NCBI GenBank assembly: GCA_902609285.1
Contig: CACLRL010000005.1
Span: 1-63,537, forward strand
Reading direction: 5' to 3'
DNA length: 63,537 nucleotides
Source of the DNA: an uncultured Candidatus Actinomarina sp.
GTDB lineage: Bacteria > Actinomycetota > Acidimicrobiia > Actinomarinales > Actinomarinaceae
Shown here: one piece after another, positions 6,457 through 46,267 of the stretch
How the letters are laid out: each line of letters opens with the position of its first letter
Numbering within the stretch: the first letter of the stretch is position 1
Program-made: the position numbers and the translations under genes
The notes under the pieces: model-generated
What the model saw: the letters and a program-made list of their open reading frames with translations, nothing else
Database searches by the model: none
Told to the model about the DNA's origin: nothing

Positions 6457-7362
6457 TCAATTAAGATCAAAAAGACTTGAAAATAAACTCCTGTATTTTT
6501 CAGAATTGCTTTCGAGGGCTTCACCATGATTACGACAGTCATTGAATTCTTTAATATTAGAACTTATACCCAATAATTCCTGTAAATCTTGTATTTGTCC
6601 TTCAGGGATGATTTCGTCATTACCACAAGAAATTAAAATTGTGGGAATTCCTATTCCACTACTTGAATCAAATTTTTCCTGAACAGAATTAAATTCAAAA
6701 TTATAAATGAGATTACTTAACAAAACTGTCCCTGGTTTAAGCAGATTTGCCATTGCAGTATTAAGAGGCGTCCTATAAGCAACTTGATCGGTAAAAACAG
6801 CTAACAGGTCCATATAGGGACTTTCTGCAAAGATTCCAACAATCTCAACACCCAAGTTCTGCTGATCAAAATCTAATCCTGTAAGTAATGCAGTTGTTGC
6901 GCCATAACTAAACCCCCAAATGCCAAACCTAGTTAAATCTTTGGCATCTCTGTAATATGCAATCGTATTAAATACGTCATTTACTTCGTCTACTCCAAAA
7001 GTAAAATCACCCTCCCCAGATTTTCCATGATTACGAAAATCAACTGCAATAATTGAATAACCAAGATTGTTAAACTCTGCGATTTTATCCAATATTTCCT
7101 GATCAGCTTTTTGACTTCTCAGCCCATGCAACATAATTATTGTGATATCAGAATTATTTGGTATCCACCACGTAGAAAGCGAGCTTTGAGAAGTCAAGAT
7201 ATCATTCTCCTCATAAATTAGACCAAGACTTTCAGGTGTTGATTCATAGACTTCATCTCCAATGCTAAATGCTGAAAAAGCCACAAAAAATGATAGAAAA
7301 AAATATAGAAAAACGATTACAAAAAGAAAGATGAAAATCTTTTTATTTTTTATTAGGTTCAT
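6457..7362 (-). CDS. Membrane-anchored alpha/beta hydrolase
   Basis: N-terminal TM helix, then HGLRSQK (oxyanion region), a GFSYGA nucleophile elbow and a C-terminal His region. Confidence 0.7.
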   Translation of the reverse strand: MNLIKNKKIFIFLFVIVFLYFFLSFFVAFSAFSIGDEVYESTPESLGLIYEENDILTSQSSLSTWWIPNNSDITIIMLHGLRSQKADQEILDKIAEFNNLGYSIIAVDFRNHGKSGEGDFTFGVDEVNDVFNTIAYYRDAKDLTRFGIWGFSYGATTALLTGLDFDQQNLGVEIVGIFAESPYMDLLAVFTDQVAYRTPLNTAMANLLKPGTVLLSNLIYNFEFNSVQEKFDSSSGIGIPTILISCGNDEIIPEGQIQDLQELLGISSNIKEFNDCRNHGEALESNSEKYRSLFSSLFDLN

Positions 7363-7780
7363 TCACATGTGACTTATTTGTTGGAATTTTAAAACCAACC
7401 AACCAAAAACTAAAAATTCCAGAAGCAAACAATACAATTCGAATAGCTGGATTATCTATAAACATTGGTGAGATAGGAATAAGGGAGAGTGTTACGGTAA
7501 CTAACATCATTGTTTGGGCATAAATCTTTGTCTTGAAAGTTATTCCTTTACCTTTTTTAAAATCAAGTACATACTTACCAAATCTTGGATGGTTGATTAA
7601 CCATTTGTACATCCTGTCAGAAGATCGTAAAAAAAGTATTGATGAGAGGATCATAAAAGGTGTTGTAGGAAGGCCAGGTATGATAATTCCAATTGCACCG
7701 AGGGAAAAACTTATAATTCCTAAAATCATATAAATTATCTTTTTGAAGTTTAACTTTGATAGATTCATGAAATATAACAA
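7343..7780 (-). CDS. DUF454 (YbaN-like) inner membrane protein
   Basis: GIIIPGLPTTPFMILSS..RMYKWLINHPRFGKY is typical of the YbaN/DUF454 family. Confidence 0.7.
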   Translation of the reverse strand: MLYFMNLSKLNFKKIIYMILGIISFSLGAIGIIIPGLPTTPFMILSSILFLRSSDRMYKWLINHPRFGKYVLDFKKGKGITFKTKIYAQTMMLVTVTLSLIPISPMFIDNPAIRIVLFASGIFSFWLVGFKIPTNKSHVNEPNKK

Positions 7781-44214: not shown

Positions 44215-44547
44215 ATGGAAACTAATGTTGAAAAATTTGCCAATTTAGATATAAGAGTTGGCGAAATTTTATCAGCGGAAGTTTTTGAGGAAGCCAAAAA
44301 ACCTGCTTATATTTTAAAAATTGACTTTGGTAAACATATTGGAATAAAAAAAACTAGTGCTCAGATTACTAACTATGACACTAGTGAATTAATCGGTTTC
44401 AAAGTTATAGGAATAGTAAATTTAGGTGACAAGCAAATTGGTCCAATTATTAGTCAATGTTTAATACTTGGTTCTACAGATTCTAATGGCGACGTATTGT
44501 TGCTAAAACCAAGTGAAGGTTCGATAATAGGTGATAAAGTATCTTAA
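44215..44547 (+). CDS. csaA: CsaA/EMAP-type tRNA-binding domain protein
   Basis: LDIRVGEILSAEVFEEAKKPAYILKIDFG is typical of the CsaA OB-fold. Confidence 0.8.
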   Translation: METNVEKFANLDIRVGEILSAEVFEEAKKPAYILKIDFGKHIGIKKTSAQITNYDTSELIGFKVIGIVNLGDKQIGPIISQCLILGSTDSNGDVLLLKPSEGSIIGDKVS

Positions 44548-45017
44548 GAAATTATTGAGTTAAACTTCTCAATATTAAAATTACCAACTCGTTTGTATAT
44601 TTTTTCACCAGTTGAATCAACTAATACATATGTTGGGGTGTACTTTAAATTATATTTTTGTGTAATTTCTAGATAATCTTTCTTAGAAGCATTCACTGAG
44701 ACAATTGGTATCTCGGGGTTTAATTTTTTGAATTCATTAACTATGAATTTTGATGCAGTACAACCTAGTCAATAATCGGAATAGAATTCTATTATTGTGT
44801 AATCAGAATTTGCAAAATTGTGATCATCTAAGACAAGGCTTCTCTTTGAATTAAAAATATACAATGCAAAAAAAGTTCCTAAAACAAAGAAACTTAATAT
44901 ATAGAGTACGATTGATGGTTCAAAAGCAATAAAAAATATAGCTAGTCCAAATATCCATCCCAGTGGTAAATAAATTAGACTGTATCTATTTATGAACTTT
45001 AAAAGTATTTTTTTCAT
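44544..45017 (-). CDS. Membrane-anchored thioredoxin-fold protein with in-frame TGA at the CxxC position (candidate selenoprotein; ORF track stops at 44769)
   Basis: Two TM helices, then ..TIIEFYSDY-[TGA 44771-44769]-LGCTASKFIVNEF..KYTPTYVLVDSTGEKIYKRVG... The same frame stays open for 74 more codons to TAA (44546-44544) and aligns to thioredoxin (F.a.WC..C, cis-Pro TP, G at the end of beta4). Confidence 0.55.
44731..44749 (-). other. Hairpin downstream of the in-frame UGA (possible bSECIS apical stem-loop)
   Basis: The RNA AAUUCAU-AGUUA-AUGAAUU forms a 7 bp stem with a 5 nt loop containing GU. The stem starts 19 nt after the UGA and the loop starts 26 nt after it. The AU-rich stem could occur by chance. 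Confidence 0.3.
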
Positions 45018-45052
45018 GTAATAACAATCTTTTCACAAATTATACTTTAACT

Positions 45053-45463
45053 ATGGATCTGATTAGCAAACTAAAAAAAAATGGCAACAGAATAACTGAA
45101 TCAAGAAGCACAATTTGCAATATATTAGAAGAATCAGGACACGAACACTTCACAGCAGAGGAGTTATATAATTTAGCTTTAAAAAAGGTAAAAGATATAG
45201 ATTTAGCAACTGTTTACAGAACATTGGACATACTTGAGTCGTTAGACATGATTGAGCACTCTCATCAGCAACATGGTTCAGGGATTTATTATTTAAAAAA
45301 ATATGATAAAAATACTCATATTGTTTGCAAGATTTGCAATGCCATTGAAGATATTTCAGTGAATGTTATGGAATCAGTTGAAAAAATTATTGAAAAAAAC
45401 TCAATGTATAAATTAACTGATAATCATTTTGTCTACACAGGTATATGCAAGAATTGTAAATAA
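45053..45463 (+). CDS. Fur-family metalloregulator
   Basis: Winged-helix N-terminus (TVYRTLDILE), HSHQQH, and two CxxC pairs (CKIC, CKNC). Confidence 0.85.
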   Translation: MDLISKLKKNGNRITESRSTICNILEESGHEHFTAEELYNLALKKVKDIDLATVYRTLDILESLDMIEHSHQQHGSGIYYLKKYDKNTHIVCKICNAIEDISVNVMESVEKIIEKNSMYKLTDNHFVYTGICKNCK

Positions 45464-45501
45464 TTATTTTTATTGCAAACCTTTTGCATTAAAATAATAC
45501 T

Positions 45502-46267
45502 ATGTATCCCACAAGTCACGAACACCACTTATCTCTACATAAAAATTCCCAATTAAATAATGTAAAACCACAACATAAAGTATTAGGATGTTTTCTTATT
45601 GTTTTATCAATTGCATTTTCAAATGTTCAAAACAACTTACAAATTGTATCTCACATCGTTATTGTTATGTATATTTTATACCTTTCAAAAAATTCCTTTA
45701 AAAACATACTTTAAGAGACTGACTCTTGATATCCCTTTCATTCTGTTTGCATTATTTTTACCTTTTTTAAGTAGTGAGAACAATGACAAAGTTTTTGAAA
45801 TTTTTTCTTTAAACATTTACCAGACTGGATTAAGTGATATGTTAACTATATTATTTAAAGCAACTCTTGGTCTTACTATTGGAATAGTTCTTACTGCTGT
45901 AACTTCAAGTATGGAAATCATTTATGGTCTTCAGAAGTTAAAAGTTCCAAATATTTTAATTGCAATAATGTCATTTACAATTAGATATATTGACGTCTTT
46001 ATAGATGAGTTTAAAAGGGTAAGAATTTCAATGAAGTCGAGGGGATACTTAGAAAAAGGTTTAAAATCTCTAATCCCTATTGCTTTTGCATCTGGAGCTA
46101 TGCTAATCCGTGGTTATGAAAGAGGTGAAAGAGTCTATTTGTCAATGATCTCAAGAGGTTTTCAAGGAACAATAGAGTTTAAATCTCGAAGTTATAAAAC
46201 ATCATATAAATTTAGTTTATGTGTTGTATCTTCTTTAGTGATACTTGGTATAGATAAATTATTATGA
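45502..46267 (+). CDS. cbiQ: CbiQ/EcfT-type transporter transmembrane component, probably split by a 1-nt homopolymer frameshift (ORFs 45502..45714 and 45599..46267)
   Basis: The downstream ORF has the CbiQ core (..RYIDVFIDEFKRVRISMKSRG..). The upstream ORF supplies two further TM helices and an ..NNVKPQHKVLG.. segment like the family N-terminus. Removing one A from the A6 run at 45687-45692 joins them (..YLSKIPLKTYFKRL..), giving about 254 aa. Confidence 0.7.

Follow-up and report, generated by a model that had tools for sequence, protein, structure and literature searches.

A predicted UxxC selenoprotein with a two-helix membrane anchor and a thioredoxin fold in Candidatus Actinomarina

We analysed a 63,537-nucleotide stretch of DNA from an uncultured Candidatus Actinomarina sp. 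(assembly GCA_902609285.1, contig CACLRL010000005.1, positions 1 to 63,537 of the forward strand; hereafter the window), which carries on its minus strand a gene with an in-frame UGA, here called Sec-trx. We hold with high confidence that Sec-trx is a genuine selenoprotein gene. The fuller account, which we consider very probable, is that a single Candidatus Actinomarina gene encodes a 157-residue selenoprotein composed of a two-helix anchor and a minimal thioredoxin fold with the active site Sec83-Leu-Gly-Cys86, and that its UGA is recoded as selenocysteine (Sec) under the direction of a selenocysteine insertion sequence (SECIS). UxxC proteins of the thioredoxin fold are the commonest class of bacterial selenoproteins. 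The present one has been catalogued since 2005 and does not represent a new kind of system; what is added here is its host and its universality there (55/55 sampled species), the two-helix anchor with its N-x-Y-S motif, a wider family of Cys and Sec forms, a syntenic Cys ortholog and comparative support for the SECIS element.

The gene opens with an ATG at 45017-45015 on the minus strand, which starts an open reading frame (ORF) of 82 codons ending at a TGA (44771-44769) in the context ..IIEFYSDY-TGA-LGCTASKF... Past this TGA the same frame remains open for 74 codons until a TAA at 44546-44544, giving a read-through product of 157 residues with the following features:

44544..45017, minus strand: read-through coding sequence of 157 codons plus the TAA stop, with one in-frame UGA (predicted Sec) at codon 83
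44850..44975, minus strand: N-terminal membrane anchor, two hydrophobic helices at residues about 15-32 and 36-56, after a K/R-rich tail with N-x-Y-S (residues 10-13)
44547..44807, minus strand: thioredoxin-fold domain, residues 71-157, with the order beta-alpha-beta-alpha-beta-beta-alpha and a T127-P128 cis-Pro motif
44769..44771, minus strand: UGA codon 83, predicted selenocysteine, in the place of the attacking Cys, the N-terminal one of CxxC
44760..44762, minus strand: TGT codon of Cys86, the resolving residue of U-L-G-C, invariant in all orthologs and in the wider family
44731..44749, minus strand: SECIS-like RNA hairpin with the stem AAUUCAU/AUGAAUU (44749-44743 with 44737-44731) and the loop AGUUA (44742-44738)

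An earlier interpretation made from the DNA letters and ORF translations (the sequence-only reading) had given the 82-residue ORF, the TGA and the 74 open codons at exactly these positions. It had also argued that such a stop-free stretch exceeds chance and that TGA is a genuine stop elsewhere in the window, and both arguments hold. At 33% GC about 7.5% of random codons are stops, and by our own arithmetic 74 open codons have a chance of ~0.003; 19 well-delimited genes of the window end in TGA, and the next in-frame stop lies 0-38 codons further on for 18 of these, as against 74 codons for Sec-trx. The long ORFs of the window stop at TAA in 36 cases, at TGA in 20 and at TAG in 6, and the standard code therefore applies. 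A scan of the window and of all loci for other UGA read-through candidates found none beyond the Sec-trx family, the remaining extensions being overlaps with genes in other frames. The predicted tryptic peptide across residue 83 is …SLVLDDHNFANSDYTIIEFYSDY-U-LGCTASK.

The read-through product had been described in the sequence-only reading as two transmembrane (TM) helices followed by a thioredoxin fold, with the UGA at the nucleophilic Cys of CxxC and a cis-Pro TP motif, and all of these elements were recovered in profile and structure comparisons. With U replaced by C, residues 71-154 matched the Pfam Thioredoxin model PF00085 with 25.8 bits against a gathering score of 23.5, and the same model matched 32/37 members of the wider family delineated below. 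Aligned with thioredoxins in PDB, the family profile puts Tyr82 opposite the Trp of W-C-G-P-C; the UGA falls on the first Cys of that motif, and its second Cys is matched by Cys86. The AlphaFold2 (AF2) model, built with 27 orthologs (pLDDT 85.6), consists of helices 16-31 and 36-57 and then a domain with elements in the thioredoxin order (b73-79, a84-99, b105-109, a116-121, b129-134, b140-144 and a149-156), and its best Foldseek matches in PDB are thioredoxins (E ~1e-5, target TM-score 0.65-0.76). T127 and P128 are invariant in the orthologs, and Cys86 is the sole cysteine in 48/52 distinct orthologs. Because beta1 precedes the UGA and alpha1 follows it in this model, neither half would be a domain on its own, and the predicted fold spans the UGA.

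By its sequence the protein is thioredoxin-like and not a canonical TrxA: it reached 28.7 bits with the TrxA equivalog model TIGR01068, short of the cut-off of 96.8, and its motif is Y-U-L-G-C, not WCGPC. In common with TrxA (PF00085, TIGR01068) it has the fold, the cis-Pro loop and a redox motif placed where helix 1 begins, and it differs from TrxA in having Tyr and U-L-G-C in place of Trp and W-C-G-P-C, a two-helix anchor, and Sec rather than Cys. In the anchor, N10 and S13 are at least 90% conserved over the wider family, and the N-tail of the orthologs has 4.3 K/R on average versus 0.13 in the inter-helix loop. By the positive-inside rule, this K/R-rich N-tail suggests an N-in/C-in topology, with the thioredoxin domain on the cytoplasmic face. 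An exported protein of the TlpA/ResA/DsbE type (Redoxin/AhpC-TSA) was considered and rejected: there was no Redoxin or AhpC-TSA match, and ResA in PDB was hit only at E ~0.9. The two TM helices and the predicted N-in/C-in topology further disfavour this type.

For an account of the UGA across species, one genome per GTDB species was scanned with the degenerate pattern E-[FY]-Y-S-D-Y-(TGN)-L-G-C, which does not require TGA. The scan matched 55 species-representative genomes, and the codon is TGA in 66/66 copies (those of the 55 genomes, of metagenome contigs and of the window). In every copy that no contig end truncates, 74-75 stop-free codons follow the TGA; relatives with TGT or TGC, or with a degraded downstream half, were not found in this set. 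Among the titles of the 55 genomes, 47 name Candidatus Actinomarina or Actinomarinales, including three of the four contigs of ~1 Mb; other titles are OCS155 cluster (2), Acidimicrobiaceae (3), only Actinomycetota (4, including JAYQSV010000001.1 of 1.01 Mb) and 'uncultured bacterium' (1). Contigs CALSSQ010000001.1 and JBJKUL010000001.1, near-complete like JAYQSV010000001.1, have the gene too. One 4.7-kb contig with the gene (L052, JAKVCV010000044.1) is filed in a metagenome-assembled genome of Saprospiraceae, into which we suspect it was misbinned. The downstream half is conserved as protein, in that TPTYVL and GEKI.KRVG persist while synonymous codons vary. Since all 66 copies have TGA followed by an open frame, the UGA is an ancient, fixed feature of the order Actinomarinales and not an error of the window assembly.

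The gene is distorted in the protein data in two ways, as the sequence-only reading had in part foreseen by predicting that gene callers would yield only a stub. A protein search with U replaced by C retrieved ~60 full-length orthologs of 157 residues (46-98% identity), all with 'W' at the UGA position and all from short contigs; the matches from long contigs are stubs ending in ..YSDY. In the DNA of ten of the 'W' contigs the codon is TGA, and the stored proteins are not reproduced by translation table 11. The 'W' at residue 83 is an artefact of gene calling, in which code 4 was chosen on short AT-rich contigs. This artefact is systematic (P0001-P0063 and P0252-P0326), the UGA for Sec being shown as Trp both in Sec-trx and in selD, and on one contig (L007, 100-876) the code-4 call of cbiQ runs 3 codons beyond its true TGA stop. 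The calls on long contigs shorten the selenoproteins instead, to an 82-residue stub for Sec-trx and to a 317-residue N-truncated form for selD.

An exhaustive hidden Markov model (HMM) search of 1.84 billion representative proteins delineated a wider family of ~160-residue proteins, in whose common plan N-x-Y-S near the N-terminus is followed by two TM helices and then by a thioredoxin domain. Many members carry CxxC at the position aligned with the UGA (e.g. P0082, P0094, P0099 and P0108); the CxxC members with names belong to Chloroflexota/Anaerolineae, and their annotation reads thioredoxin family protein or thiol-disulfide isomerase. Four distant members stored with 'W' were fetched as DNA (L066, L067, L069 and L070), and the codon proved to be TGA in all four. 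The closest Cys form, P0082, is 34% identical, has the motif C-A-G-C and is encoded on a 26-kb contig of 32% GC (L072), along which the gene order matches that of the window: Abhydrolase_3, cbiO, cbiQ, (cbiM), fur, the divergent trx, a convergent csaA-like gene for a tRNA-binding protein, FMN reductase, acyltransferase, yczE and yceI. Given this common gene order, comparison of the loci identifies P0082 as the positional ortholog with Cys where Actinomarina has UGA. Alternation of Sec and Cys of this kind is the classical mark of selenoprotein families.

The Cys proteins of Chloroflexota/Anaerolineae share with the Actinomarina protein a length of ~160 residues, N-x-Y-S, the two TM helices, the thioredoxin domain, TPT(F/Y) and a Cys at the UGA position; they differ from it in being only 17-26% identical, in having CxxC rather than UxxC and in lacking a hairpin after the first Cys codon. 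Their charges are also distributed differently, with a K/R-rich inter-helix loop and an uncharged N-tail (P0094, P0099, P0108, P0113 and others), the reverse of what is seen in Actinomarina and P0082. This pattern suggests an inverted membrane orientation within one family.

The loop of the hairpin begins 26 nt past the UGA. The published model of bacterial SECIS (bSECIS) elements specifies a stem of 4-16 bp, a loop of 3-9 nt with a G in its first two positions, a spacing of 16-37 nt and a minimum free energy of at most -7.5 kcal/mol (PMC13188914); with 7 bp, the loop A-G-U-U-R and a spacing of 26 nt, the geometry of the Sec-trx hairpin lies within this model. The hairpin is present in both the minimum-energy and the centroid folds with a z-score of -1.2, which is not significant, and single-sequence folding statistics were significant for no member of the family. 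The case for the hairpin therefore comes from comparative data only. At codons 91-94 the 52 distinct orthologs are free of synonymous variation (TTC 46/46, ATA 52/52, GTT 52/52 and AAT 29/29), while flanking residues of equal conservation use 2-4 codons each. All seven stem pairs are formed in 42/42 distinct sequences from Actinomarinales, with changes of UA to CG in 5 of them, to UG in 3, and of AU to GU in 4. A replacement of Phe by Leu (UUC to CUC) is always accompanied by a silent change of GAA to GAG opposite (5 sequences); U-G intermediates occur in 3, and C-A never.

In the four distant Sec forms the stem is different and rich in GC (AGCCUG/CAGGCU and variants), and it occupies exactly this codon register. 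In a comparison of ten sequences that includes them, 95.7% of the stem cells pair, as opposed to 17-44% in controls with the partner shifted by 1-3 columns; 5/7 stem pairs are changed on both sides, and the observed covariation score was matched by 0/500 shuffles. The G-U of the loop is conserved throughout (AGUUR, GAGUUGA, CCGUAGA, CGUUG and AGUUG). Two Cys forms were examined, one of them the positional ortholog, which is just as AT-rich; by our own count both form only 3/7 pairs in register, none of these contiguous, and their predicted folds are different. These comparisons argue strongly for the hairpin as a SECIS element. Its position, spacing and putative SECIS role as first proposed are thus backed by covariation, and its thermodynamic weakness, which the sequence-only reading had conceded, is real, yet the comparative evidence is strong.

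The Sec machinery has been reported for this lineage: selA, selC, selD and a divergent selB were found in 84/84 complete Actinomarina genomes ('Actinomarina, resolved', Nielsen & Lui, 2026 preprint, doi 10.64898/2026.04.03.716425), which speaks against a complete genome lacking selABCD, an outcome that would have counted against the selenoprotein. The same preprint gives about five predicted selenoproteins per Actinomarina genome, among them a Sec-form selD with the prefix MRLT (doi 10.64898/2026.04.03.716425). A 341-residue Sec-selD starting with MRLTQYSHGSG-U-ACK is included in the supplement to the Sargasso Sea selenoproteome (PMC1088965), and close relatives of it are numerous in the protein database, as proteins of 341 residues with 'W' on short contigs and of 317 residues, N-truncated, on long ones. 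On two contigs, LUML01000002.1 (122 kb, 32-34% GC) and the GORG single-cell contig CACIVO010000005.1, we observed the Sec-selD gene (MRLTQYSHGSG-UGA-ACK; L074 9930-10954 and L094 230-1254) with its in-frame TGA ahead of the annotated start and, before this TGA, a Shine-Dalgarno sequence and an ATG. A small hairpin, GCUCAA-GUU-UUGA(A)GC, lies 33 nt after this UGA, and the Sargasso variant, GCUCAG-GUA-CUGA(A)GC, has its closing pair changed on both sides. These contigs partly corroborate the preprint's claim on selD.

Several points weigh against Sec-trx as a SECIS-recoded selenoprotein gene. We infer both the insertion of Sec at UGA83 and the dependence of the hairpin on SelB from sequence. At gathering thresholds Rfam recognised tRNA-Met in the window, and no SECIS or other RNA family. 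The consensus hairpin has an energy of -4.1 kcal/mol and the 51-nt segment one of -4.8, versus the bSECIS limit of -7.5 kcal/mol; a weak stem is expected in a genome of 33% GC, and the distant Sec forms fold at -10 to -17 kcal/mol. Covariation inside Actinomarinales concerns one pair, the strong signal coming from a few deep lineages and hence from few independent events. No selA, selB or selD gene or tRNA-Sec was detected in the window (Pfam on 20 ORFs, ARAGORN) or in 55 related 8-kb loci; the claim for the machinery rests on one unreviewed preprint, and the Sec-selD contigs are linked to Actinomarina only via its description. As for the anchor, the positive charges that the Chloroflexota homologs place in the inter-helix loop form the opposite pattern and leave the topology uncertain.

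Among the other explanations, read-through without selenium survives best and is still improbable. A leaky UGA would here be decoded by the near-cognate tRNA for Trp, Cys or Arg to yield a full-length protein lacking selenium, with the hairpin merely slowing termination. UGA is the leakiest bacterial stop codon, and the thermodynamic weakness of the hairpin and the want of Sec machinery within the window agree with this possibility; however, the codon stands at the position of the catalytic Cys, a place at which Trp or Arg would destroy the redox motif, the alternation of Sec and Cys forms over the family is just that of known selenoprotein families, the loop retains the G-U required of bSECIS elements, and the lineage is reported to have selA, selB, selC and selD. 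The palindrome might alternatively be a DNA operator, for example for the neighbouring Fur-family regulator, and not an RNA structure. It is indeed a perfect 7-5-7 inverted repeat ~270 bp from that gene, but 7/42 distinct sequences pair only via wobble (GU 4, UG 3), which keeps an RNA helix and breaks a DNA palindrome; moreover, the distant Sec forms have a wholly different stem sequence in the same register, the Cys ortholog with the same Fur neighbour lacks the repeat, and the element always keeps a fixed distance from the UGA, all of which make an operator very improbable.

We assign next to no likelihood to a pseudogene, a sequencing error or a pair of independent small genes, the first encoding an 82-residue membrane peptide and the second the C-terminal part. 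Local errors do exist, as the probable homopolymer frameshift in cbiQ of the window indicates, and gene callers do split the locus, but the TGA recurs in 66/66 copies from independent assemblies and single-cell genomes with frame and length kept, both halves are under purifying selection, and past the UGA no start codon is conserved; the earliest candidate, a GTG at 44696, would halve the fold. A reassigned code with UGA for Trp (table 4) has a negligible probability in spite of the ~60 database proteins with W at residue 83, since the DNA behind the 'W' has TGA and table 11 does not give the stored proteins, the long-contig calls are stubs, TGA ends 19-20 well-delimited genes of the window with further stops soon after, and the code-4 call of cbiQ in L007 overshoots a true TGA stop by 3 codons. 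We rejected the code-4, pseudogene and DNA-operator readings for these reasons.

On the selenoprotein reading, which we retain, expression would proceed from the conserved TATAAT in the 35-bp spacer common to Sec-trx and the divergent fur-family gene. The anchor would be translated up to UGA83, where the hairpin 26 nt downstream would recruit SelB with Sec-tRNA(Sec), so that the UGA is decoded as selenocysteine and translation goes on to finish the thioredoxin domain; ribosomes not recoding would stop at the UGA and free an 82-residue stub in the form of a TM hairpin. The mature protein would be a membrane-tethered thiol/selenol-disulfide oxidoreductase. By analogy with CxxC thioredoxins, Sec83 may attack the substrate and Cys86 may resolve the intermediate as a selenenylsulfide.

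Two features lie immediately upstream of the gene:

45039..45044, minus strand: conserved TATAAT (-10-like), located 21 nt before the ATG in the 35-bp spacer, with a putative function
45053..45463, plus strand: divergent Fur-family regulator gene (Pfam FUR, E=4e-26), a neighbour and not part of the selenoprotein gene

The element GTATA(A/T)T (window 45039-45045, minus strand) is invariant or nearly so across 13 aligned fur/Sec-trx loci, the Cys ortholog included, and the TATAAT is likely to be the promoter of the selenoprotein gene. A scan with the sigma-70 consensus gave no more sites than in shuffles; it left the TATAAT unflagged, and no -35 match is present. No palindromic element resembling a Fur box is evident in the 35-bp spacer. 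The divergent gene had been assigned to the Fur/PerR family at this 35-bp distance in the sequence-only reading, and the Pfam match agrees with a Fur-family regulator; it scores below the cut-off of every NCBIfam subtype. Gene tables of ten orthologous contigs (L001-L010) and of the Cys-ortholog locus (L072) formed the basis for synteny, and in all of them the adjacency of fur and Sec-trx is kept. Further conserved neighbours are an energy-coupling factor (ECF)-type CbiQ/CbiO transporter and an NADPH-dependent FMN reductase. Together with the Fur-family gene these neighbours at most hint at metal or oxidative-stress physiology.

In the window cbiQ (45502-46267, plus strand) is split over two frames, as an ORF at 45502-45714 and another at 45599-46267; it is a single ORF in L007. 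Dropping one A of the A6 run at 45687-45692 restores ..LSK|IPLKTY.., which matches ..ISRIPIKTY.. of L007, and the split is either a homopolymer assembly error or a true frameshift. In L072 a cbiM gene (6565-7494, 309 residues) lies between fur and cbiQ. It is absent at the corresponding place of the window (45464-45501) and in L007, and CbiQ and CbiO are therefore found there without an adjacent substrate-capture component. Another membrane-associated thioredoxin fold is that of FetE of Campylobacter jejuni (PDB 8t4c), a Foldseek match with E=4e-5. The two structures superpose poorly (TM-score 0.42-0.47, rmsd 7.4); FetE relies on Cys, differs in its anchor and probable location, and is likened to Sec-trx on the structural match. 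FetE belongs to a metal (iron) uptake cluster, and Sec-trx for its part has genes for a Fur-family regulator and an ECF metal transporter close by.

The Sargasso Sea selenoproteome of 2005 counted 11 Sec thioredoxins with UXXC, and its supplement lists AACY01000927, AACY01011298 and AACY01037136 as Sec 'Thioredoxin (UXXC)', with the sequence ..EFYSDYuLGCTASKFIVNEFKK..TPTYVLVD.. (Zhang, Fomenko & Gladyshev, PMC1088965). AACY01000927 belongs to the same family: across 113 residues it has 80% identity to the window protein, with an identical EFYSDY-U-LGCTASKFIVNEFKK segment, and the same UxxC prediction was made for it independently. Since the ORFs of 2005 start inside TM helix 2, the anchor was missed and went undescribed; the host was then not known, and neither a Cys positional ortholog nor covariation of the hairpin was reported. 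The sequence-only reading was made without knowledge of this listing, and its interpretation is supported. Among the Trx-like families with UxxC in the selenoproteome of the Global Ocean Sampling (GOS) survey is 'Trx-like 1 (including Trx)' (PMC2398784), into which the Sec-trx family was probably carried; the motif of Sec-trx was not found in the two thirds of the GOS sequence supplement examined, an absence that means little. The deep-Sep selenoproteome of Actinomarina concerns the same group of organisms and mentions by name just selD, one family of 78 residues and another designated K07090 (doi 10.64898/2026.04.03.716425). Its main text does not contain the word 'thioredoxin' and reports no SECIS via Rfam models, and it neither names nor excludes the Sec-trx gene.

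The value of these results lies mainly in the correction of annotation, together with the Sec/Cys pair, the lineage-specific AU-rich SECIS and the anchor. In the protein data searched, the gene appears as an 82-residue stub, as fragments or with a false Trp in its active site, and selD fares likewise; the in-frame TGA behind this artefact is present in every one of the 55 unannotated species-representative genomes. More tentatively, and on balance doubtfully, the protein could be the founding and universally conserved member of a distinct class of cytoplasm-facing thioredoxins tethered by two TM helices with N-x-Y-S, its function tied to the Fur-family and ECF neighbours, the Chloroflexota forms facing the other side and the Sec form being among the few selenoproteins to justify the whole Sec machinery in a 1.1-Mb genome. 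If true, this would imply a role such as the redox handling of a metal or the protection of a membrane component, and would make it a family with inverted topologies. In the sunlit ocean few bacteria are as abundant as Actinomarina, whose genomes are among the smallest of free-living organisms, and which of their proteins use Sec bears on the retention of the costly Sec machinery.

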